From contig CAYOFQ010000002.1 in the NCBI GenBank assembly GCA_964403585.1, forward strand, positions 5,667-69,666: DNA of 64,000 nt, written 5' to 3'. Of the stretch, positions 1 to 63,701 are shown one piece after another (within the stretch, counting starts at the first letter, position 1; each line of letters opens with the position of its first letter). Source of the stretch: an uncultured Gammaproteobacteria bacterium (GTDB lineage Bacteria > Patescibacteriota > Microgenomatia > JALYQM01). The notes below the pieces were generated by a model, which ran no database searches, had not been told where the DNA came from, and worked only from the letters and a program-made list of their open reading frames with translations. Made by a program: the position numbers and the translations under genes.

Positions 1-2155
1 CAATACATTGTTTATATAATTCCGCACGCTCCAACTCAGGAATATATCTCCACTCTCTGTATTCAACACCCTCAAAATACTTATCAACTTCGTTATATCG
101 CTGCATCATTTTTTCAATAAGAAGCTCAATCGGCTGCATAGGTTGCTGATGTACTTCAGATGTGTATTCAGAAATTGCCTTCTTCAAAGCCAAGGCAACT
201 CCAATATAATCAACTACTATGCCAGCTTCTTTATCTTTATATCTTCTATTAACTCGGGTAATTGCCTGCATCAAGGTATAACCTTTAATCGGCTTATCTA
301 TGTAAATTGTATGCAAATGAGGAACATCAAATCCCGTTAACCACATGTCACAGACAATAACTATTTTGAGTTTATCATCAGGATTTTTAAATCTCTTTTC
401 CAATTCTTTGTTACTCAATTCGTCTTGAATTTTTCCTTTATAATCGCTATTACTAGAAATAACAATTGCCATCTCAGGAGCTAAAGGTAAATCCTTCATA
501 ATATTATAAAGATCAACGGCTATCTTTCGAGTCATCGTTACAACCATTGCCTTACCTTCAAGTTTTCTATGTACAAAATGGTATATAATATCCTTTGCAA
601 CTCGTCTCAACCTATCATCCGCACCCACTAAACGCTCTAATTCGCTAAATTTCTTTTTTAATGTTTCCTTCACTTCTTCGGGATGTTCCGAAAAATAATC
701 ATCAAAATCTTCATTGATAAATTCATTCGCGAAATGAAGTGGAATTAACCGGCTATCATAAAAAATTGGAACCGTAGTCTGGTCACGCTCTGAACGATCA
801 ATAGTATATCTGCTAACAACCTTCCCAAACACGAGCTGAGTATTTCTATCGCTAAAAGCTATCGGAGTACCTGTTATACCTAAGAAAGAGGCATTCGGAG
901 CAGCAGTACGGATATTACCTGCGTAATCAGCATATTGAGAACGATGAGCTTCATCTGCTATTACAATTAGATTAGCTCGATCCGTAATCTTATGGTCAAA
1001 ATCAAACTTCTGGATAGTCGTAAAAAGTATTTCGGAACCAGGATAGGACAATTTCTCTTTTAAATCCTCAACGGTAACAGCAATTTTCGAACCTATAAAA
1101 CCTGAACGTAAAAAAGTCTTATACAATTGCTGATCTAAATCATTTCGATCAGTCAAAAATAACAGCATGGGACCAGAAAGTTCATCAAGTTGTCGCACCT
1201 TATTGGTATAAAAAACCATTGACAAGGATTTTCCACTACCTTGAGTATGCCAATAAACACCAATCTTTTTGTTACCTTTCACCGAATCAAGAGTTTGCTT
1301 AATCGTCCTATTAACTCCAAAGTACTGATGATACATGCACATTTTTTTTGTGTATTTTGTAGCATCTTTTTCTGCATCAGCTTCGAATACAATGAAGTAA
1401 TGAATAATATCAAGCAAATGATCTTTATTAAATATACCCTTAGTCAATACCTCCAGCTGATATTTATCTTCATTATTCTCTTCTTCACTTTCGATCCCGT
1501 CCCAAGGCACAAAGAAATCCCATGAGGAAGAAACCGTTCCATGTTTCGCCTTAAAAGAGTCACTAGCTACTAAAACTTGGTTAAAATAGAAGATTTTAGG
1601 AATATCCTGCTTATACTTCTCATGCAGTTGAGTAAAGGCATCAACAATTGTAGCATTAGGATCTGTAGGATTTTTCAATTCATAAATAGCGATAGGTAGA
1701 CCATTAATAAACACAACAACATCTGGCCGTCTTGTTTTCTCAACACCTTGCACAGAAAATTGATTTACAACTAAGAACTCATTATTAAACAAGTTTTTAA
1801 AATCAATCAATTTAACATATTCATTTTTAGTATCTCCAGCTTTATTCCTAAAATGAACTTCGATTCCTTTAATTATCCACTCGTAGGCTTCTTTATTTCC
1901 AAGCTCAATATCTACGTGATGAAATCTCATAAGCAGTTGCACAACTTCGTAAATTTTTTCTTCTGGAATTGACGGATTAATCCGTATAAGCGACCGAGTC
2001 AATCGTGATTTTAGAATTACATCACGATAATCCTCCCGCTCAGGTGCAACCCCTCCAGGAGCAATATCAGGCCCATATGCATACTCATACCCAAGCTGCT
2101 TAAACCAACCTAATAATGGCTGTTCAGACAATGTATCTTCATTCAACTTACTCAT
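1..2155 (-). CDS. hsdR: Type I restriction enzyme R subunit (HsdR), N-terminal and helicase part; C-terminus lies beyond the left window edge
   Basis: Minus-strand translation from the ATG at 2155 (MSKLNEDTLSEQPLLGWF...) is open to position 1. It has a PD-(D/E)xK-like N-terminal region, Walker A HTQGSGKS, a DEAH box (IVIADEAHRSQY) and helicase motif VI (QAITRVNRRY). The start overlaps the hsdS stop. Confidence 0.8.
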   Translation of the reverse strand, partial: MSKLNEDTLSEQPLLGWFKQLGYEYAYGPDIAPGGVAPEREDYRDVILKSRLTRSLIRINPSIPEEKIYEVVQLLMRFHHVDIELGNKEAYEWIIKGIEVHFRNKAGDTKNEYVKLIDFKNLFNNEFLVVNQFSVQGVEKTRRPDVVVFINGLPIAIYELKNPTDPNATIVDAFTQLHEKYKQDIPKIFYFNQVLVASDSFKAKHGTVSSSWDFFVPWDGIESEEENNEDKYQLEVLTKGIFNKDHLLDIIHYFIVFEADAEKDATKYTKKMCMYHQYFGVNRTIKQTLDSVKGNKKIGVYWHTQGSGKSLSMVFYTNKVRQLDELSGPMLLFLTDRNDLDQQLYKTFLRSGFIGSKIAVTVEDLKEKLSYPGSEILFTTIQKFDFDHKITDRANLIVIADEAHRSQYADYAGNIRTAAPNASFLGITGTPIAFSDRNTQLVFGKVVSRYTIDRSERDQTTVPIFYDSRLIPLHFANEFINEDFDDYFSEHPEEVKETLKKKFSELERLVGADDRLRRVAKDIIYHFVHRKLEGKAMVVTMTRKIAVDLYNIMKDLPLAPEMAIVISSNSDYKGKIQDELSNKELEKRFKNPDDKLKIVIVCDMWLTGFDVPHLHTIYIDKPIKGYTLMQAITRVNRRYKDKEAGIVVDYIGVALALKKAISEYTSEVHQQPMQPIELLIEKMMQRYNEVDKYFEGVEYREWRYIPELERAELYKQCI

Positions 2156-2156
2156 A

Positions 2157-3326
2157 CTAAACATCTAGTTCCCCTCTTAACAACTTAGGCAGCAAGATGT
2201 CTTTCAATGAAATTAATTCATTATTTTCAACTTCTAACAGTTGAATCTTATGTTCTATACCTCCTGCAATTATTTCAAACTTTGAGATTAACTCTTCTGG
2301 AGGTAATATAACCTTTATATTTTCTAATTCACTTTTAGTAACAGCAGCAAAGATAGAACCAGATCCAAAACTATCTTCTTTTTTAAATACATTTCTTAGT
2401 TGGTAAAACAGAAAACTCTGGCTACCATTTTTATTTCGAACAGATGCTAGGCCTCGACCTAAGGACAACTCTCTATCAGCAATGTTCAGTCTTCCAACAG
2501 GGGCACGCACACTCAATAAAATATCTCCTTTTGCAGCTTTTCTCGGATTATTTGTACAGAAAATTTTATGAGTAGGATAACGCCGTCCAAAATAAGTAAC
2601 TCCCTGATGAAAAGGAAGACCCTTACCTTCTATGTTATAGTCTTCAGATGGTGGAGATTGACCCATTATAATATCTGCTACTTCAGCAAGAGTAGTTAAC
2701 CTCCACGTAGACTCAGACAAGACCTTATTACCTTGAATCATAAACCATTCTTTATAAACTAATTGGGCAACAAGTTCCAGCTTTTCTACAATTTTATTAT
2801 TTAGTACGATTTTTTCATCTAGTCTTGAAATTATCGAAGATATTTTAGACTGTATTCTCAAATTTTCAGGATACTTAATCAATATTTGCCTCAACTCAGC
2901 TTGCCTTATTCCTTCTGCAGCAGTTCCGCTCAATCTCTTAAGTAATTCATGTCTCCCCTCAGCTCCCTGAAGGTAATAGTATAAGTACTTAGGATCCAAT
3001 TTAGTTTTATCAGTCCTTAGTCCAAATAGCCTTTGGCTTAAAACAAGATCTTTTTTTTCAGCTAAATAATATATCTCACCTAAAGGCGCTTCTGATGTTA
3101 ACAAAATATCCCCTGCTTCAAGCTTTTCAGGCATCCACTTCTCATATAAATCCGAACTAACATACCTTATATCATCATGATTGACTATTCTACCTGTCTT
3201 AATATTTTTAGCAGATATCGCTGGAATGCCTTTACTCGACCAATCACCTCCTAATTTTTTAGGAGTTAAACCTCTATGATCAATTATCAATTCCATTAGA
3301 TTATCAAGTCTATCTTGTTTCCACAT
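2157..3326 (-). CDS. hsdS: Type I restriction-modification specificity subunit (HsdS), two target-recognition domains
   Basis: 389 aa with the typical HsdS central and C-terminal conserved helical repeats (…IISRLDEKIVLNNKIVEKLE… and …ILPPEELISKFE…LLPKLLRGELDV). It sits between the NYN gene and hsdR. Confidence 0.8.
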   Translation of the reverse strand: MWKQDRLDNLMELIIDHRGLTPKKLGGDWSSKGIPAISAKNIKTGRIVNHDDIRYVSSDLYEKWMPEKLEAGDILLTSEAPLGEIYYLAEKKDLVLSQRLFGLRTDKTKLDPKYLYYYLQGAEGRHELLKRLSGTAAEGIRQAELRQILIKYPENLRIQSKISSIISRLDEKIVLNNKIVEKLELVAQLVYKEWFMIQGNKVLSESTWRLTTLAEVADIIMGQSPPSEDYNIEGKGLPFHQGVTYFGRRYPTHKIFCTNNPRKAAKGDILLSVRAPVGRLNIADRELSLGRGLASVRNKNGSQSFLFYQLRNVFKKEDSFGSGSIFAAVTKSELENIKVILPPEELISKFEIIAGGIEHKIQLLEVENNELISLKDILLPKLLRGELDV

Positions 3327-3401
3327 ATACTAAACCCTTATTAAATTTGACTTATATCCACATTTTGCATATAATTAACATATAACGATGACTGGATAAG
3401 C

Positions 3402-3914
3402 CTAAGGTTTCGACCGACCGCTGATGCCAGTCGTTTTTTTGACATATTTTAAGCTCATTTTGAGCTTATCCAACGTTACTATATATTGAGCATACTTTCT
3501 CAATAAACTGGAATAATGCCTATTAGGCGTAATTACCTTCAAAAGCTTATTCTTACCAACTAAATGCTCAACTAAACAGTGAAAATCTCCATCATTAGAT
3601 ACAATTATCGCCTTTTCATAGTTTTCAAGCTCAATCATAGTATGTAAAACAAGCTCAGCATCAACATTCCCCTTCACAACTCCAGTTTTCAAAGTTAAGG
3701 TAGGCTTCAAAATGACTATATACCCCATCTCTTGTAAATGTGTATAAAGCTTTTCATTATCAGCTTTAAATCCGATAAAAACAAATGCTTTTTCGATCTT
3801 ATATTTATTTTTTAGATACTGACGAAACTTTCGCCAATCCAATTCCCAACCTTCAGATCGAACTCCTAAATTGAGATTTTGGCTATCTATAAATGCATAA
3901 TTCTCTTTACTCAT
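3402..3914 (-). CDS. NYN-domain (LabA/PIN-like) predicted ribonuclease embedded in the Type I R-M operon
   Basis: N-terminal YAFIDSQNLNLG and downstream AIIVSNDGDFHCLVEHL match the NYN/LabA acidic-residue pattern. The start ATGA overlaps the hsdM stop at 3911-3914, implying translational coupling. The C-terminal roughly 15 aa read through a hairpin region (3413-3473), so the true stop may be earlier. Confidence 0.6.
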   Translation of the reverse strand: MSKENYAFIDSQNLNLGVRSEGWELDWRKFRQYLKNKYKIEKAFVFIGFKADNEKLYTHLQEMGYIVILKPTLTLKTGVVKGNVDAELVLHTMIELENYEKAIIVSNDGDFHCLVEHLVGKNKLLKVITPNRHYSSLLRKYAQYIVTLDKLKMSLKYVKKTTGISGRSKP

Positions 3915-5704
3915 AACTCAAATCCTAAAGTTTTCAAATTCTTTCGTATCTCTTCTTCTAGTTGTCTCGATTTAGCAAAGTCAGCAGATAAACTCTTCGT
4001 CAACTCCGACATTTTTTCTTCATATGAAATACCGTCATCTTCTTCCTCCGCAATCTCAACATATCTCCCTGGAGTCAACACATAACCATTTTCAGCAATC
4101 TCAGAAAGAGTTACTGATTTACAGAACCCAGCTACGTTCTCATAAGTACCCACTTCACCTCTCCAAGCTCTCACAGTATCAGCAATCTTCTTAATTTGCT
4201 CATCATTAAATATCACTTGCTTCCTCGAAATTTGCTCGAATAGATCCTTGGCATCAATAAACAACGTTTCTCCAGCTCTATTTCGAAACCTTCCAGAAAC
4301 TTTATTCTTAGTCATAAACCACAAAGAAACAGGGAGTGAAACATTATAAAATAGTTTAGGAGGGCAAGCGATAATAATATCAATAAGGTCATCATCGATC
4401 ATCTTCTTACGGATTTCCCCTTCTTTACCACCTACAGCTAATGCCCCGTTAGCCATAACAAAACCAGCCATACCATTGGGAGTTAAATGATGCAAAAAAT
4501 GTTGAATCCACATAAAGTTAGCATTACCGGATGGAGGCGTTCCATATTGAATTCTCGGATCTTTTTCATCTAGTCGATCAGGGTTCCACTCAGCATTAAA
4601 AGGAGGGTTACAAATTTCGAGATCTACCTTTAAGTCGGAAAATTTGTCATCATAATAAGTATTTCCAAGTTCAATCTTTCCATAAATGCCTCTAATCGCT
4701 AAGTTCATTTTACATAACTTAAGAGTAGTTTGATTACTTTCTTGACCATAAATCGCAATCTTTGTAGGGTCTTTATGATGTTCTCGTAAAAATTTACTCG
4801 ACTGAACAAACATACCACCCGATCCACACGCAAAATCCGCAACTCTACTATTTTCAAAAGGTTCAAGCACTTCGACCAAAACCTTAACTATTGAGCGAGC
4901 AGTAAAAAATTCACCTCCACGCTTACCTTCTTCTGAAGCAAACTGACCTAAGAAATATTCGTAAACCCTACCCAATAAATCTTTTTCTTTTTCAATGTCG
5001 TGATCAAAGTTAATTCTAGAAAATATATTTACCAATTCTCCGAGGATGTGACTGTCAAGGCCCACACGAACGTAACTTTTGGGAAGTACCCCAGTAAGCT
5101 GTTCAGGATTATCTTTTTCTATAGCATCCATAGCTTCATCAATGTATTTCGCGATATCACTTGAAGTAGCCTTTGAACGCAAGTATTCCCATCGAGCAAT
5201 TTCTGGTATAAAGAAAATTCCTTTACTTTTATACAAGTCTTTTTCCTCTAGCATTTTCTCTCTTATTTGAGGATCCGGAACATACTCAGGTCTACTAGAA
5301 TCAGCCATAAATTCGACTAATTCATCCCGCCTTTGATAATAAGTGTCGGTAATGTATTTAAGGAATATAAGGCCCAAAACAATATGCTTATAATCGGAGG
5401 CATCAATTGAGCCACGCAGCTTATCTGCAGCGGACCAAAGATCATTCTCAAAATTTATATCTTTGTCCTTATTGATCTCTTGAGTAAGTCTTTTTGCCAT
5501 TTTGGCTGTTTCTAACTGAGCAACACTCACTCTAGATTGAAGTTCACTTGGCAAAGTATCCACTCGAATAAGGTATTTCTTACCTACCTCTTTGATTAGC
5601 ACCTCTCCAGCCTGTATTTTACCTTGTAACTGTTTTTGTATAGCTTGTCGCGACACACCAAGTATCCGTGCAAGGTCATTAATGGTGATATATTTTTCTT
5701 CCAT
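3911..5704 (-). CDS. hsdM: Type I R-M N6-adenine DNA methyltransferase (HsdM) with N-terminal helix-turn-helix domain
   Basis: 597 aa; catalytic NPPF motif (ICNPPFNAEWNPD) and an AdoMet-binding region (DFACGSGGMFV). The N-terminal roughly 70 aa look like a DNA-binding HTH (ITINDLARILGVSRQAIQKQL). Confidence 0.9.
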   Translation of the reverse strand: MEEKYITINDLARILGVSRQAIQKQLQGKIQAGEVLIKEVGKKYLIRVDTLPSELQSRVSVAQLETAKMAKRLTQEINKDKDINFENDLWSAADKLRGSIDASDYKHIVLGLIFLKYITDTYYQRRDELVEFMADSSRPEYVPDPQIREKMLEEKDLYKSKGIFFIPEIARWEYLRSKATSSDIAKYIDEAMDAIEKDNPEQLTGVLPKSYVRVGLDSHILGELVNIFSRINFDHDIEKEKDLLGRVYEYFLGQFASEEGKRGGEFFTARSIVKVLVEVLEPFENSRVADFACGSGGMFVQSSKFLREHHKDPTKIAIYGQESNQTTLKLCKMNLAIRGIYGKIELGNTYYDDKFSDLKVDLEICNPPFNAEWNPDRLDEKDPRIQYGTPPSGNANFMWIQHFLHHLTPNGMAGFVMANGALAVGGKEGEIRKKMIDDDLIDIIIACPPKLFYNVSLPVSLWFMTKNKVSGRFRNRAGETLFIDAKDLFEQISRKQVIFNDEQIKKIADTVRAWRGEVGTYENVAGFCKSVTLSEIAENGYVLTPGRYVEIAEEEDDGISYEEKMSELTKSLSADFAKSRQLEEEIRKNLKTLGFEL

Positions 5705-5744
5705 GACAATATCGTAACATATTAAAATAGAAAGTCAAGTTGCA

Positions 5745-5768
5745 ATATGACAACAAAAGTTGTCATAT
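5745..5768. promoter_or_regulatory. Perfect 10-bp inverted repeat (ATATGACAAC-aaaa-GTTGTCATAT) 40-64 nt upstream of hsdM; candidate operator
   Basis: Palindrome read directly from the sequence in the AT-rich hsdM upstream region. HsdM carries an N-terminal HTH that could bind it. Confidence 0.35.
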
Positions 5769-5776
5769 GAATATCA

Positions 5777-6469
5777 CTATTCGTCCACTCTCACCTCGTT
5801 CACCACATCATAATATGCATGCAAATACGAATTCTCCAACACCTCGCACTTCACCAACCGCAACGGTCGCACCTTCAACAAATCCACCTGCGTATGAAGC
5901 GACTCTCCATCCACCAACGTCGACGTATCCTTACCACCCACCAACACCGCCGCAATCACCACCGAAACATGATCAATCAGTCCTCGCCGCACCCATTCCG
6001 CATTCAACGTTCCTCCCGACTGAATCGTAATCCGATCCACCCTATACTCACGCTTAAGTTTCTCCATTAACCCAGCCAAATCCACTTCACCGTCATAAAA
6101 TAGAATCTCAATATTCGAATATTCCTGCTTCACCTTAAAAGCCGGATGATTTTTATTCGTCGTCACCAAATACAACGTCTTCACCCACTGCGCCAAATAC
6201 GCCACACCCTTTTCATTTAAATGAGGCTTATTATCCAGGATAATAAAACTACAATCAATTTTCTTCGGCGGAGTCGTTCGCTCATTCACCCCAATCTTCG
6301 CCATCACCCGCCCTGTATTTAACGAAAACAAATCCGTCTGCTTCTCCAAGTCATAGTACTGCTGTAACCCTTCCTTAACCCCCACAATCCGCTTAAAATC
6401 CTTATCTACATCCAACTCGTCTACATCCCCGGTGGAAATCTTTCCATCCATGTGATACACAATAATCAT
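5777..6469 (-). CDS. RibD C-terminal domain / dihydrofolate-reductase-like reductase family protein
   Basis: 230 aa; C-terminal ITIQSGGTLNAEWVRRGLIDHVSVVIAAVLVGG is typical of RibD_C/DHFR-like proteins. The overlapping plus-strand ORFs are antisense artefacts. Confidence 0.6.
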   Translation of the reverse strand: MIIVYHMDGKISTGDVDELDVDKDFKRIVGVKEGLQQYYDLEKQTDLFSLNTGRVMAKIGVNERTTPPKKIDCSFIILDNKPHLNEKGVAYLAQWVKTLYLVTTNKNHPAFKVKQEYSNIEILFYDGEVDLAGLMEKLKREYRVDRITIQSGGTLNAEWVRRGLIDHVSVVIAAVLVGGKDTSTLVDGESLHTQVDLLKVRPLRLVKCEVLENSYLHAYYDVVNEVRVDE

Positions 6470-6997: not shown

Positions 6998-7021
6998 AAA
7001 ATAAAATTCAAAGTGTAATAA

Positions 7022-7054
7022 TAAAAAAGAGCCGTAATGGCTCTTTTTTATTTT
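7022..7054. terminator. Bidirectional rho-independent terminator between convergent genes
   Basis: Stem AAAAAGAGCC / GGCTCTTTTT with loop GTAAT, an A-run 5' and a T-run 3'. Confidence 0.65.
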
Positions 7055-9057: not shown

Positions 9058-10149
9058 TTACGGAAACAAGGTTTCAAACGAAGGACTATGCTCGAGGATT
9101 TCTCGCAGAAAAATATTCTTGGCAAAACGGTCAACTATTCCGGCAGCCGTATCCGTCAGTTCATCAGGCAATCGTCGCATCGTTATGCGTTGGTACATCG
9201 GATGAATCAGCGCGAAACCGTATTCAACAGTTCTCACCGCCAAATTACTAAAACCCATTTCCCGGCATTTCGAACGCAACTGTGCTTTATGTTCACGTAC
9301 AAGCCACTTTGGATCCTCTGTCGGATGTATCGATTGCAGCGCGTTATAGTAGTTTGGTATAGCCAACCGACCATCCAATTCCGCCCCGTTAATATCATCA
9401 TCAATCTGAGCCAACATCGTTGTGTAATGCAACCCCACCAGCGCCCGGCGAGTCCGTGTCACATCGCTACCTGCATCGAAGAAAACTGAATATTTAGCCA
9501 CCATCTCTTCAAAATTTCGCGGCATCTGAGCAAAGTTAAAACCAACTTCTTCTAATACCTGCGGACTCAGTAAAGACAAACAAAACGCCTCATACATAGC
9601 CACATCACAATGGACATGTTGCAGCTGTTGCTCCGGTGTCAGTTCACCTTGGTAGGTTGACAGAAACAAACTATCCCGGGAAAAATGACCAAAAGCAACA
9701 TCAGCTTCTCCACACGGCACTGCCGCAAATTTTTCAAAATACCGTTTGTGCAAACGTTGAGACATCTCTACTAATGCATCTCGATGATCTGTAGCACCGA
9801 CAGCTTTACGCTCAGCCGGTCGGCCAACATCAATATAGTCATTCAAGGCCGTCAGAGCCACCAAATACGCATCCAAGCCGCGCACCCTCTCGGCGATAGT
9901 ACCCTGCAAATAATCGGGGAATAAACATTCCACTGCCGAAACAATCGTCGCCGTCGTTACGGGCAAAGTTAACCCAGGTTCTTTTCGCTTCTCAGCGGCC
10001 ACAACCCGTCCAACTTCAATAAAAGAACTCACACCTTCAGAGAAACTTGCCATATCGCGAATTATACCATTACTAAGCAAAAAAGCATAAATATGATACA
10101 ATCCGTTCTTAATATATGAACGAATTAGTTCGGGAAATTGGATATGCAC
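9058..10149 (-). CDS. hypothetical all-alpha protein, divergently paired with the cytochrome P450
   Basis: 363-aa ORF whose 5' end overlaps the P450 start, so the real start may be internal (e.g. the Met at 10053). Asp-rich stretches (FFDAGSD, IDDDING) are present, but their spacing does not match terpene-synthase DDxxD/NSE motifs. Confidence 0.45.
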   Translation of the reverse strand: MHIQFPELIRSYIKNGLYHIYAFLLSNGIIRDMASFSEGVSSFIEVGRVVAAEKRKEPGLTLPVTTATIVSAVECLFPDYLQGTIAERVRGLDAYLVALTALNDYIDVGRPAERKAVGATDHRDALVEMSQRLHKRYFEKFAAVPCGEADVAFGHFSRDSLFLSTYQGELTPEQQLQHVHCDVAMYEAFCLSLLSPQVLEEVGFNFAQMPRNFEEMVAKYSVFFDAGSDVTRTRRALVGLHYTTMLAQIDDDINGAELDGRLAIPNYYNALQSIHPTEDPKWLVREHKAQLRSKCREMGFSNLAVRTVEYGFALIHPMYQRITMRRLPDELTDTAAGIVDRFAKNIFLREILEHSPSFETLFP

Positions 10150-18404: not shown

Positions 18405-18681
18405 CTCCCCGACTAGGATTCGAACCTAGAACCTTCTCGTTACATGAACCCCACAAGTTTCCTAGTGGCATGGACTATCTCATCACCATACTTAAAAAGC
18501 ACAGGTGTCAGGCGTATAGTCTCTGAACCTTCAATACGCAAGAAGCGTAAAGCTTGGCTGCGGATTACCATAATCTTTCGATCGTAGGCTTCCCGACAGT
18601 TAACCCAATTTTCACTTCAGGATTTCTCCAGAAGGCTGCATCAATCTACAGCGAGCCGCTCTACCGTTGAGCTATCAGGGA
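18405..18681 (-). tRNA. tRNA-Asn(GUU) interrupted by a group I intron (5' exon 18681..18648, 3' exon 18442..18405)
   Basis: The exons rebuild a 72-nt cloverleaf: acceptor UCCCUGA/UCGGGGA, D-arm GCUC-AACGGUA-GAGC, anticodon loop CUGU|UAA, T-arm CUAGG-UUCGAAU-CCUAG, discriminator G73; close to Bacillus-type tRNA-Asn. The intron sits between anticodon positions 35 and 36, after a U. Confidence 0.75.
18443..18647 (-). ncRNA. Group I self-splicing intron (IC3-like, 205 nt) within tRNA-Asn
   Basis: P1 pairs the 5' exon GCUGU with an internal guide GCAGC and ends on a U•G wobble at the splice site. The Q element AAUCCGCAGC is an exact match; the R-like GGUUCAGAGACUAUA and S-like GAGAUAGUCC pair in a P7-like helix (GACUAU/AUAGUC); there is a P-like UGUCGGGAAG; the last intron nucleotide is G. 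I recall the Azoarcus/cyanobacterial tRNA introns carrying similar …GCCAAGCUU… and …GAAGGU.UAGAGACUA.ACG… stretches, but this is from memory and not aligned. Confidence 0.8.
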
Positions 18682-24958: not shown

Positions 24959-25288
24959 CAGCTTATCCGAGGCAGTTGAGCCACGCACACACGCTTACGC
25001 GTGGCTCAGCTCCTCGCAGGAGAAACCAAATGGAGTTTACTAAGCCCTTGAGTCTTGAACTCATTCGTAGCGTATTTCCCTATTTAGCCTCAACCTGTAC
25101 ATGTTCTCTTGTCCCATTTTAACCTCAAATAAGCTCAAATCTTATCCAAGCTCAATTTTAGCCTAAATATAACGAAATAATAACCTATAGTATTGACATA
25201 TAGGACAAAATATGGTAATATACAAGATGCCTCACCGAGGCTACCAGTTCAAATAGAACCGTCTAGACTCAGTTGAGGCTAGGAAGAG

Positions 25289-33121: not shown

Positions 33122-33208
33122 CGGAGAGGGAGGGATTCGAACCCTCGATACCCTTGCGAGTATATTGTCTTTCCAGGACAACGCACTAGTCCACTATGCG
33201 ACCTCTCC
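33122..33208 (-). tRNA. tRNA-Ser(GGA)
   Basis: Class II tRNA: GGAGAGG acceptor, anticodon stem-loop UUGUC-CUGGAAA-GACAA, long variable arm, T-loop GGUUCGAAUCC; CCA not encoded. Confidence 0.8.
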
Positions 33209-36654: not shown

Positions 36655-36738
36655 CGGAGAGGGTGGGATTCGAACCCACGAGGCTCATCACCTAGACGTG
36701 TTCGAGACGTCCGCACTCGGCCACTATGCGACCTCTCC
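36655..36738 (-). tRNA. tRNA-Ser(CGA)
   Basis: GGAGAGGUCGCAUAGUGGCCGAGUGCG…GACGU-CUCGAAC-ACGUC…GGUUCGAAUCCCACC; long variable arm. Confidence 0.8.
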
Positions 36739-36837: not shown

Positions 36838-36910
36838 TGCACTCGACAGGAGTCGAACCTGTAACCGTCAGCTCCGCAAGCTGATGCTCTATCCATTAAG
36901 CTACGAGTGC
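36838..36910 (-). tRNA. tRNA-Arg (anticodon read as GCG)
   Basis: GCACUCG acceptor, D-arm GCUU-AAUGGAU-AGAGC, anticodon stem-loop UCAGC-UUGCGGA-GCUGA, T-arm ACAGG-UUCGACU-CCUGU. Confidence 0.7.
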
Positions 36911-40397: not shown

Positions 40398-40491
40398 TGG
40401 CGGAGAGGGAGGGATTCGAACCCTCGATACGGGTTTAGGCCCATATAATTTCTTAGCAGGAAATCGCTTTCGTCCACTCAGCCACCTCTCC
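40398..40491 (-). tRNA. tRNA-Ser(GCU), CCA encoded
   Basis: GGAGAGGUGGCUGAGUGG…AUUUC-CUGCUAA-GAAAU…long variable arm…GAGGGUUCGAAUCCCUCCCUCUCCGCCA. Confidence 0.8.
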
Positions 40492-41452: not shown

Positions 41453-42019
41453 ATGAGAAATACTCGTAAAACGCCCAACACTACTTGTGCTTACTGCCAA
41501 ATTCCTTTCTATAAAAAACCTTCAGAAATAAAAAAATATAAGCACACCTTTTGTTCGACTAAATGCTATGGAAAGTTTAGTAGCCACCCCTTAACTTGCA
41601 TTATCTGCGGAAAAGAATACCCAAGAAAATTTCACAAAAAAACCTGTAGCCGCAGCTGCGCTAATAAGCACCGAAGTGGAATAAAATATAAAGTAAATCG
41701 ACCAAGAGACAAAGTCGCTTACTCAACAGGGCTTAAAATACGCTTATTATCTGAAAGAGGCTCATCATGCCAAAGATGTAATTTCCCAAAAACAGAAATT
41801 TTAATTGTTCACCATAAAGACAGGGATAGGACCAACAACAACCTGAAAAATTTGGAGCTTATTTGCCCAAACTGTCATGCTGAAGAACACTATCTAGAAA
41901 AAAACTGGCTAAAAAGATATAATGTTCAGGAATTTAAAGAAAAGCTCCTTTTGAAAGAATCTGCTTACTTTATCTATCGTACGGAGAGGTCGCCTAGTGG
42001 TTTATGGCAGAAGTCTTGA
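41453..42019 (+). CDS. HNH-family endonuclease; 3' end overlaps tRNA-Ser(UGA)
   Basis: Cys-rich N-terminus; HNH core ILIVHHKDRDRTNNNLKNLELICPNCH. There is no in-frame stop before the tRNA, so the last roughly 15 codons read into it. Confidence 0.6.
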   Translation: MRNTRKTPNTTCAYCQIPFYKKPSEIKKYKHTFCSTKCYGKFSSHPLTCIICGKEYPRKFHKKTCSRSCANKHRSGIKYKVNRPRDKVAYSTGLKIRLLSERGSSCQRCNFPKTEILIVHHKDRDRTNNNLKNLELICPNCHAEEHYLEKNWLKRYNVQEFKEKLLLKESAYFIYRTERSPSGLWQKS

Positions 42020-42069
42020 AAACTTCCAGGTGATGAGCCTCGTGGGTTCGAATCCCACCCTCTCCGCCA
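41973..42069 (+). tRNA. tRNA-Ser(UGA), CCA encoded
   Basis: GGAGAGGUCGCCUAGUGG…GAAGU-CUUGAAA-ACUUC…long variable arm…GGGUUCGAAUCCCACCCUCUCCGCCA. Confidence 0.8.
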
Positions 42070-52956: not shown

Positions 52957-53111
52957 AAAAGTCCCAACAACTGTTGGGACTTAATTGTGGACATCCATGA
53001 CGAAAGTAGCCGACAATGACGAAGTGGAGAATGAATTAGAGAATATAAATCAACTCAATAATAATTCCAACAAAAGATGAATAAACGATAGTAGTGTAGT
53101 AAAATCAAGCA

Positions 53112-54733: not shown

Positions 54734-55895
54734 ATAAATTCACTAGTCAACCTAAAATTCAAACAGATCACGCACCTCAACACCCAATCGCACAGCAAGC
54801 TTTATCAAATACCACACCGTTGTATTCACATATCCATTTTCAATTTTAGCCGGGACCGAAGTGAAAAGTATTATCTTCTCTCAATAATCATTTACAGATG
54901 TGGAAAAGTTACCGGTCTACAAGACAAACCATTTATGACAAAAAATCAGGGGTTGGAACCAGTACTTTATCCAGTCCTATTAAGGTTTTTGATGCTTTAA
55001 AAACATCAAAAGAAAATGATGTGGAGATGCCGATCTATGAAATCGGGTCTGGAATCTGTAATTAAAAACATCTACATAGCATAGTCGGTACTTATATCTC
55101 GTACCACAACGATCCTACCGACAGGAGAAGTGATACAAAGGTCAAAGTCTTAAAGGATTACAGCGACCACCCCGAATCCTCGCATACAATCTTTGTTTAC
55201 GCCCTACTCCGCTCGATTGTAAAATCAGAATAGAACGTCCATTGTTTAGCTAAAGAAAAGTTTAGCCAAATGCAGGATAGCTAACGCCTGCTACAGCGTT
55301 ACCCAAGCCGAAGTTTGGGAACTTTGCAGCGATTTTGTCAGCTATTGATGTAGAAGAATCTGCATCTATATTTTAGTCCCGTTTTTACGACTCTTGAGAC
55401 CATCGTCGGCTATGCAGTTTTTAAAGAGCACATCCCATCGAAACAACACATCCCCATGAGATTTTATGTTAAGACTAGTGCTTAACAAGACTGAATTATA
55501 ACACATTTTAAGCCATTTTTCCAGTAAAATAAACCTGCCAAACCGCTAATAGCAGAGCAAAGCTTTAAACGCAAGCAGAGCGAAGCCTTAATCGTATCAC
55601 TGGCAAGCTCGACAAGAAGGGTATAATTACCCTGTTGACATACATACACTAATGATATAACATATAAATATACTTACAGTATAACAGTCATCACTCGCTG
55701 TAAGTGTTCCTTAAAAATTCCTTTTCTGATTTCGTCGCAGACCCCGGGATCATATAAAAAGGGCACAATACATGTCCTGTCAGTATCTCATTATAGGTGC
55801 CGCTAAATTGGATAAGGAATTTATGAATAAACCCGTCTTTGAAACATAAGGCGGGTTTATTTTTATGCAAAGCCTTTCTCCCTTTACCCCTACAC

Positions 55896-63646: not shown

Positions 63647-63670
63647 AACTCAAAAACAAAATAGAGTTAA

Positions 63671-63701
63671 AAATACCGGTCTTTATGACCGGTATTTTTT
63701 T
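63671..63701 (+). terminator. rho-independent terminator after the pilin-like gene array
   Basis: Stem ATACCGGTC / GACCGGTAT followed by a T7 run. Confidence 0.65.

Follow-up and report, generated by a model that had tools for sequence, protein, structure and literature searches.

Accessory genes for RNA-cutting proteins are found inside Type I restriction–modification (R-M) operons in the PrrC/EcoprrI and RloC systems; PrrC combines an ABC-ATPase with an anticodon nuclease, is regulated by its R-M enzyme and is almost always R-M linked. In Type I toxin–antitoxin (TA) systems, a convergent small RNA with its own promoter is complementary to the mRNA of the toxin, typically a small membrane or hydrophobic peptide, and the pair forms a compact, mobile two-gene unit; members with a 3'-overlapping antisense RNA or an enzymatic toxin include TxpA/RatA, BsrG/SR4, SymE/SymR and RalR/RalA. 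In ToxIN, a Type III TA system, the endoribonuclease-fold protein ToxN is preceded on the same strand by a structured RNA, ToxI, made of tandem repeats, and phages carrying the RNA alone are known (PMC3594212). DUF3800 genes, in turn, associate with eleven unrelated and unexplained RNA motifs that bear terminators, and the DUF3800-I to -XI, drum and skipping-rope motifs are conserved structured RNAs with terminators of their own, associated with one protein family and found on either strand (PMC5737381). Here we analysed a Type I R-M operon at the start of a 64,000-nucleotide stretch of contig CAYOFQ010000002.1 (hereafter the window), in which a predicted LabA-like NYN nuclease gene and an antisense small RNA gene at its 3' end lie between hsdM and hsdS. 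LabA-type NYN proteins are abundant in bacteria, and we know of no established molecular role for them.

The first-pass annotation of this operon had likened the NYN gene to prrC and rloC, proposing a latent RNase held inactive by its R-M partner and released by phage anti-restriction. We favour a different reading, to which we give an even chance of being correct: the NYN gene may be one half of an autonomous, horizontally mobile nuclease/RNA-antitoxin-like module that was captured in a cargo slot of the hsd operon.

The NYN protein and the RNA gene at the 3' end of its reading frame

The NYN gene occupies positions 3402..3914 of the minus strand and encodes a protein of 170 aa. Its assignment to the NYN family in the first-pass annotation was borne out by both profile and predicted structure. 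The protein matches PF01936 at 58.6 bits (E=1.3e-15; curated cutoff 24.2 bits), and its AlphaFold model (pLDDT 81.7) has as its best Foldseek matches in the PDB the LabA-like structure 2qip (E=4e-8) and the NYN RNase domain of MARF1 (E=3e-4). Residues D10, D85, D108 and D110 are invariant among 26 homologs (motifs FIDSQN, GNVDAE and SGDGDF). Judged by profile and model, the open reading frame (ORF) encodes a bona fide NYN-fold protein, with an acidic site that appears intact by sequence. It is a single domain, and scans with Pfam, PADLOC and NCBIfam detected neither an ABC-ATPase nor a sensor domain in it. The family comprises at least 8,000 matching clusters at 90% identity, the best 120 listed being 64–100% identical, and at 50% identity 117 clusters match at E≤1e-30. 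Its hosts are Patescibacteria, Omnitrophota, WOR-3, Nitrospirota, Elusimicrobiota and others, with 54–71% identity, and the C-terminal tail of the window protein, KKTGISGRSKP, is invariant among homologs. Searches of phages and plasmids from cultured hosts found no member of this NYN subfamily, only rhizobial plasmid genes of at most 30% identity.

We surveyed the neighbourhoods of 80 species-representative NYN loci, taking up to 8 kb of flanking DNA per side, and a second sample of about 60 metagenome loci. An all-against-all comparison of the flanks revealed no conserved DNA upstream of NYN; the conserved block consists of the last ~40 nt of the NYN ORF and ~60 nt beyond it. Read opposite to NYN, this block has the order TTGACA, 17 nt, TATAAT, 6–7 nt, AUCACGAUGA, a hairpin and a U-run. 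In the window, the corresponding small structured RNA gene, ~59 nt long, lies at 3382..3440 on the plus strand (covariance model R1, 76 bits, E=1.6e-16) and is made up of a conserved 5' tail, AUAACGAUGA, a three-tier hairpin (P1-P2-P3) and the U-run. The final 37 nt of the NYN gene, among them the stop codon, are shared with the RNA. Since the RNA starts ~20 nt past the NYN stop and ends, with the hairpin and U-run as predicted terminator, in the last codons, it would be complementary over its whole length to the 3' part of the NYN mRNA.

The predicted promoter of the RNA is at 3347..3375 (+), with a -35 box TTGACT (3347-3352), a 17-nt spacer and a -10 box TATAAT (3370-3375). It matches the consensus at 11 of 12 positions, close to a consensus sigma-70 promoter, and is the best promoter-like site in 2100-5900. 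It sits inside the 75-nt spacer between NYN and hsdS and is directed away from hsdS. Across 75 distinct loci the promoter boxes stand at a fixed distance from the RNA 5' end, the -35 box at -35 to -30 and the -10 box at -12 to -7, with an extended -10 TG at -15/-14, and 48 of these 75 promoters match at least 9 of the 12 consensus positions.

Several lines of evidence argue that the element is constrained as RNA. The minimum-energy fold of the window RNA (-19 kcal/mol, z=-3.6) agrees with the covariance model. In an alignment first built from 45 hand-anchored sequences and then extended to 98 distinct model-aligned ones, 96% of cells were paired and 10 of the 11 pairs showed compensatory changes; the covariation score was 0.489, whereas shuffles gave 0.189, none of 500 reaching the observed value, and slid controls did not exceed 0.166. 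Read in the RNA orientation the alignment contains 21 G-U pairs, as against at most 9 non-standard cells in P1-P2. Stem P1 covaries, and there is almost no variation in the loops or in the 5' tail, AUCAC(G/C)AUGA. A second subfamily has NYN ORFs that end short of the element, and its loops and 5' tail are still conserved, which argues that the constraint on the element is not protein-coding and that the invariant KKTGISGRSKP tail is a read-through of a constraint at the RNA level. These results show in silico an RNA structure in the 3' element, together with promoter and terminator signals of its own.

Rfam 15 gave no match at E≤1 for 3200-4000 of the window, none at gathering score for the element in a scan of the whole window, and none at E≤0.01 in the related loci L081, L082 and L084. 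Two other identities were considered and set aside. Read by eye, the core motifs of a self-cleaving ribozyme, hammerhead or other, are absent, and the second RNA subfamily does not keep the small ORF (AUG-ACU-GGA-stop) that can be read in the RNA.

The hairpin might instead act as DNA, as an attC-like site ending a promoterless cassette, in which case the promoter boxes would be fortuitous. Such a site would fit the lack of conserved DNA upstream of NYN, the frequent joining of NYN to the preceding gene by an ATGA overlap, the position of the element at the 3' edge of the conserved block and the sharing of one hsdM junction by unrelated cargo genes. The attC core sites GTTRRRY and RYYYAAC are, however, absent from all 60 elements inspected (0/60), integrases do not figure among the 25 commonest neighbour families, the -35 and -10 boxes and the U-run are fixed on one strand, and the G-U pairs favour that same strand. 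The element therefore does not group with integron cassettes, and we regard a role as a DNA site as the least probable of the alternatives considered here, and scarcely credible.

Linkage of the RNA to NYN genes and of NYN genes to restriction operons

The covariance model found the RNA in 76 of the 80 NYN loci, always on the opposite strand and at the NYN 3' end, and in the 948 kb scanned there were no stray copies except for a second, variant RNA in L076. Among metagenome contigs with room for the gene, NYN stood in the same arrangement beside 61 of 66 RNA copies. We conclude with high confidence, on in silico grounds, that the NYN/antisense-RNA module exists and that its two parts are linked. 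It is widespread and apparently undescribed: in the literature on NYN proteins with antisense RNAs, RNA antitoxins, Type I restriction or candidate phyla, we found no account of such a module.

Some loci depart from the standard arrangement. The variant RNA of L076 (614-671, minus strand) lies upstream of NYN, in addition to the standard copy at the 3' end. Two of the four loci that the model missed, L069 and L075, have an antisense RNA-like start, AUCAC..., followed by a different body, in L069 with clear promoter boxes. Common to all three variant RNAs are the AUCAC(G)AUGA sequence at the 5' end, a stem and the U-run; their interiors differ. L219 contains a tandem pair of NYN+RNA modules, L213 has two RNA matches side by side, and L193 carries three NYN paralogs on one contig, two of them at 27–29% identity. 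In L200 (2527-3273) and L204 (3699-4445), a solo RNA adjoins two small ORFs, the second of which looks MazF/PemK-like by eye.

We found Type I genes near the NYN gene at 1 of the 80 genome loci (L066, with hsdM/hsdS similarity within 8 kb) and hsdM near it at 2 of the ~60 metagenome loci; L066, L220 and L252 are further modules that adjoin hsdM. Among the 80 loci there was no recurring protein neighbour of NYN, the immediate neighbours being a mixture of tRNA synthetases, SecA, transketolase, NUDIX and other proteins. The NYN family is not R-M linked, and the module usually lies outside restriction operons.

These counts bear directly on the proposal that NYN is a PrrC/RloC-like latent RNase, held by HsdMSR and freed by phage anti-restriction proteins. 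In support of that proposal, the window gene lies in the accessory slot and is translationally coupled to hsdM, a few further NYN modules adjoin hsdM, and related operons hold defence-type cargo, namely an ABC ATPase, Shedu SduA and, downstream, GmrSD. There is also published precedent for PIN-like toxins within Type I operons and for 'guilt by embedding' (PMC5499597; bioRxiv 10.1101/2024.01.29.577857). Unlike PrrC, which is almost exclusively embedded in R-M operons (bioRxiv 10.1101/2024.01.29.577857), NYN is R-M linked in only ~1–3% of loci, so that a PrrC-like dependence on R-M is not the general rule for this family. In addition, the NYN protein lacks the N-terminal ABC-ATPase of PrrC and RloC as well as any sensor, its family has no obligate Type I linkage, and it carries its own conserved, regulator-like RNA. 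Latency through an R-M partner thus finds no support and appears very improbable. The architectural half of the analogy, an accessory gene embedded in the hsd operon, stands; the regulatory half does not.

A possible nuclease/RNA-antitoxin module and its rivals

The module that we propose would consist of a LabA-type NYN ribonuclease and the ~59-nt structured RNA, driven by a strong opposite-strand promoter of its own, and would have landed in the hsdM–hsdS cargo slot of a low-GC Type I R-M island, where it would act independently of the R-M enzyme. From the features described above we infer a scheme for its transcription, toxicity, neutralisation and role in defence. The hsdM promoter would supply the NYN transcript, translation of NYN would be coupled to the stop codon of hsdM, and a constantly made small RNA would silence NYN, by antisense pairing or by binding the protein. 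Loss of the RNA, for example when host transcription is shut off upon infection, would release NYN. A CRISPR-associated bacterial NYN protein is a non-specific, Mn-dependent single-strand RNase (PMC11346440), so harm from an NYN that escapes control is plausible. In phages that have only the RNA, it would serve as a decoy. The mechanism best supported by our data is an RNA-antitoxin or abortive-infection module countered by phage decoys, though we would call the balance for and against it level, with a housekeeping nuclease as its main rival.

In its layout the proposed module resembles the Type I TA systems. As in those systems, a convergent RNA with its own promoter is complementary to the mRNA of the protein; in silico, the antisense overlap and the RNA's own predicted promoter and terminator are conserved at 76 of 80 loci. 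In contrast to the usual small membrane peptide, the protein here has a predicted soluble NYN fold of 170 aa, and the cross-phylum sequence conservation of the RNA exceeds the needs of pairing. ToxIN likewise joins an endoribonuclease fold to a structured RNA; instead of tandem repeats upstream on the same strand, the NYN module has a single antisense RNA at the 3' end, and an NYN fold in place of that of ToxN. With a single-copy, opposite-strand RNA and this fold, it falls outside the Type III systems (ToxIN, CptIN, TenpIN).

A further parallel with ToxIN comes from viruses. A first DNA pattern used on viral sequences was too loose, returning 80 loci of which four were true by covariance model. 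Among IMG/VR viral contigs, five carry a full-length RNA alone (L089, L097, L103, L133 and L297) and two carry NYN and RNA together (L292 and L293); L097 and L103 encode large terminase and portal proteins. The metagenome sample has 5 solo and 61 paired copies, a contrast with the viral contigs that gives an odds ratio of 30 (Fisher p=3e-4). Capture of an RNA antitoxin by a phage defeats ToxIN (PMC3594212), and the solo phage RNAs resemble the pseudo-ToxI of that case, as would fit molecular mimicry that lets a phage evade abortive infection. On the phage contig L089 we also noted an RNA ligase gene (phrog_548, 3172-3810) that ends ~900 nt from the solo RNA (4708-4762), recalling the RNA-repair answer of phages to anticodon nucleases.

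The RNA also occurs with a different protein. In L082, one of the operons related to that of the window, it stands in the hsdM–hsdS slot (region 9559-9806; 80.8 bits, intact promoter) after a DUF3800 gene and with no NYN, and in L083 the small RNA likewise follows DUF3800 without NYN. A further hairpin-like sequence, AACTGG...CCAGTT, lies in L082 between the DUF3800 stop and the RNA and has no Rfam match. The present RNA may belong to the same biology as the published DUF3800-associated RNAs, from which it differs in matching none of their Rfam models and in having NYN as its usual partner. More tentatively, and at somewhat less than an even chance, the data could reflect a new, widespread class of RNA-antitoxin TA or abortive-infection systems, found mainly in uncultivated lineages (Patescibacteria, Omnitrophota, WOR-3, Nitrospirota and Elusimicrobiota), with a LabA-type NYN RNase as toxin and the sequence-conserved structured RNA as antitoxin, the RNA also serving other effectors such as DUF3800 and being copied by phages as a decoy.

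Alternatively, the RNA could be a substrate, cofactor or scaffold of NYN within a ribonucleoprotein, its tail and loops serving protein recognition or target pairing. Nearly invariant loops and 5' tail beside a covarying P1 are a pattern typical of protein-bound RNAs, and the variant RNAs of L076 and L069 keep the 5' tail on other bodies. The RNA has no variable, guide-like segment, however, the same RNA accompanies DUF3800 in L082, and the solo phage copies are more easily explained as decoys. We consider a ribonucleoprotein improbable, if a little less so than PrrC-like latency.

A number of observations weigh against an RNA-antitoxin module with phage decoys. The comparison of viral with metagenomic RNA copies involves small numbers and differing search patterns. 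Five cellular copies of the RNA are solo and, with the DUF3800 pairing in L082, indicate that the RNA is not strictly NYN-specific. The sequence conservation of its loops and tail exceeds what pure cis-antisense pairing would need. Its promoter and terminator are consensus inferences in a Patescibacteria-like lineage, in which promoters are poorly known. The one NYN candidate that has been assayed for defence, HEC-09, was not protective (bioRxiv 10.1101/2024.01.29.577857). Like the window gene, HEC-09 is NYN cargo in a defence operon; it is an HTH (helix-turn-helix) and NYN protein embedded in Hma systems, and the window NYN matches it at only 19 bits. Methyltransferase, R-M or helicase genes make up only ~5% of NYN neighbours, most of which are housekeeping genes. 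Finally, at 55–73% identity across phyla, NYN is unusually conserved for a toxin, which fits a housekeeping role equally.

The last two points lead to the main rival explanation, in which NYN is an ordinary RNA-metabolism gene of small-genome bacteria, acting in processing or decay under a cis-antisense regulator and serving neither as toxin nor in defence, and its place in the hsd operon is incidental. Bacterial NYN/LabA proteins are tied by genomic context to tRNA and rRNA processing (PMC5499597), and antisense control of ordinary genes is common. Several features are harder to reconcile with such a role. NYN has no conserved synteny at all, the 55–70% identity between proteins of unrelated phyla implies horizontal transfer, some contigs carry tandem or multiple copies (L219, L193), the slot in other operons holds defence-type cargo, and the RNA occurs by itself in phages. 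On balance we judge a housekeeping nuclease unlikely, while giving it clearly more weight than the ribonucleoprotein.

The hsdM–hsdS cargo slot and the control of the operon

The operon around the module contains all three Type I subunits, matched by Pfam, NCBIfam and PADLOC, and lies on the minus strand. hsdM (3911..5704) encodes 597 aa, including an N-terminal extension of ~80 aa, and matches N6_Mtase (E=7e-104) and HsdM_N (E=2.5e-25). hsdS (2157..3326) encodes a specificity subunit with two target-recognition domains, with Methylase_S in two stretches and PADLOC Specificity_I at E=5e-73. hsdR (1..2164) is cut by the window edge, so that only its 5' part is present (721 aa visible; HSDR_N, SWI2_SNF2, ResIII and T1R_D3-like domains by Pfam; TIGR00348 E=9e-173); its ATG at 2164 gives an 8-nt overlap with the end of hsdS. 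At the hsdM/NYN junction, ttATGAgt, the NYN ATG (3914-3912) overlaps the hsdM TGA (3913-3911). The ORFs, profiles and junction sequence thus agree with the order hsdM-NYN-hsdS-hsdR and the ATGA coupling as originally annotated. The GC content of the hsd region (window 1-5700) is ~0.35 (range 0.33–0.39), compared with ~0.43–0.45 in the rest of the window, which suggests an acquired island.

We compared eight HTH-hsdM operons whose HsdM proteins share 64–94% identity. In all eight, the hsdM–hsdS junction is filled by cargo, and the cargo genes are unrelated: NYN and the RNA in the window and L081; DUF3800, the RNA, DUF4145 and one further ORF in L082; an RNase H-like RVT_3 gene in L084; DUF3800 in L285; DUF2321 and one further ORF in L287; DUF4145 in L288; and an ABC ATPase in L289. 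The cargo begins at the hsdM stop codon, by an ATGA overlap in six of the eight loci, with an 8-nt overlap in L084 and a 3-nt gap in L285. Most of the operons have additional cargo at the hsdS–hsdR junction (SduA, a Shedu nuclease, in L289; DUF4145 and other ORFs), and GmrSD lies just downstream in related operons. 'Guilt by embedding' and Type I embedding hotspots have been published (bioRxiv 10.1101/2024.01.29.577857; PMC12255303), as have PIN-like toxins in Type I operons (PMC5499597), and because the slot fits these cases the architectural analogy drawn in the first-pass annotation holds. A close parallel is DarTG2, carried with RptR in Type I R-M operons, where TA cargo likewise occupies an embedding site that is a recombination hotspot under HTH/operator control; RptR is a separate small repressor (PMC12255303), whereas in the window the HTH is fused to HsdM.

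In Type II systems, SsoII-type methyltransferases with an N-terminal HTH, as well as C-proteins, autoregulate R-M genes through an inverted repeat in their own promoter. The HsdM analysed here belongs to a Type I system, and profile searches support the N-terminal HTH proposed for it. Residues 5-50 (~5692-5555, minus strand) match the excisionase-type winged HTH_17 with a score of 24.8 bits in a scan of the full protein, which rises to 28.1 bits (cutoff 27 bits) for the first 90 aa alone. Of 25 homologs, 14 have HTH_17 and 20 have HTH_11, and there are weak PDB profile matches to MarR/ArsR-type regulators. The fusion is not peculiar to this locus but common: the best 120 HsdM matches all cover at least 92% of the query, and nearly all of them 99–100%.

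The perfect 10-bp inverted repeat reported upstream of hsdM at 5745-5768 is present exactly there. Read 5768..5745, it is ATATGACAAC-tttt-GTTGTCATAT, and it lies just after the stop codon of an unrelated RibD_C gene. The window holds five distinct perfect inverted repeats of at least 10 bp where ~1.7 would be expected from shuffles, so the palindrome alone is not remarkable; the other four, with short loops, lie at 7021-7051, 24977-25008, 52959-52982 and 63669-63699. Its half-sites are nevertheless conserved in orthologous hsdM promoters although the upstream genes differ. In seven of eight related hsdM loci, an inverted repeat GTTGTCA-N2-3-TGACAAC abuts the -35 sequence TTGAC. L081, L082, L084, L287 and L288 all have it, and L285 has a degenerate form. 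In the window the operator-like repeats span 5739..5768 (minus strand), comprising the palindrome and GTTGTCA (5754-5748)-TAT-TGCAAC (5744-5739), followed directly by TTGACT, and the perfect palindrome arises because a third half-site sits upstream of the conserved repeat. We also considered the palindrome as a RibD_C terminator; the hairpin has a stability of -12 kcal/mol, yet it has no T-run, was not called by the terminator scan and has half-sites that are kept elsewhere.

The predicted hsdM promoter (5711..5738, minus strand) consists of a -35 box TTGACT (5738-5733), a 16-nt spacer and a TG-extended -10 box TACGAT (5716-5711). A gap of 6 nt separates the -10 box from the ATG, a Shine-Dalgarno sequence is lacking, and by inspection a -10-like box precedes the hsdM ATG by ~6–9 nt in seven of the eight loci. 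The nearness of the box to the ATG suggests a leaderless hsdM mRNA. Self-regulation by HsdM, as first proposed from the palindrome, gains support from the HTH and from the operator conserved in seven of eight loci. On these sequence features the winged HTH of HsdM probably binds the conserved repeat beside the -35 box and autoregulates the operon, and it is reasonable to infer that the M2S complex would do so through its two HTH domains. A literature search turned up no Type I HsdM that combines a fused winged HTH with a conserved operator.

Elsewhere in the window we noted a group I intron match (RF00028, 79.7 bits; 18451-18657, minus strand), a tmRNA (55019-55455, minus strand) and five tRNA genes, at 33122-33208, 36655-36738, 36838-36910 and 40401-40491 on the minus strand and 41983-42066 on the plus strand, four of which are 84–91 nt long.

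Taken together, the conserved operator and the apparently leaderless mRNA of the HTH-HsdM family suggest that a Type I system can be autoregulated at the level of transcription by its own methyltransferase, and the strictly coupled hsdM–hsdS slot offers a hunting ground for new defence genes. The RNA described here is a new family absent from Rfam, and the relatives of its partner nuclease fill thousands of protein clusters at 90% identity. The pairing of NYN with a dedicated small RNA provides a concrete model, that of a nuclease held in check by an RNA; if true, this would be the first function for bacterial LabA-like NYN proteins and would supply a working hypothesis for the unexplained DUF3800-associated RNAs. 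The solo phage RNAs would likewise point to RNA-decoy counter-defence in the phages of candidate-phyla bacteria that are hard to study.

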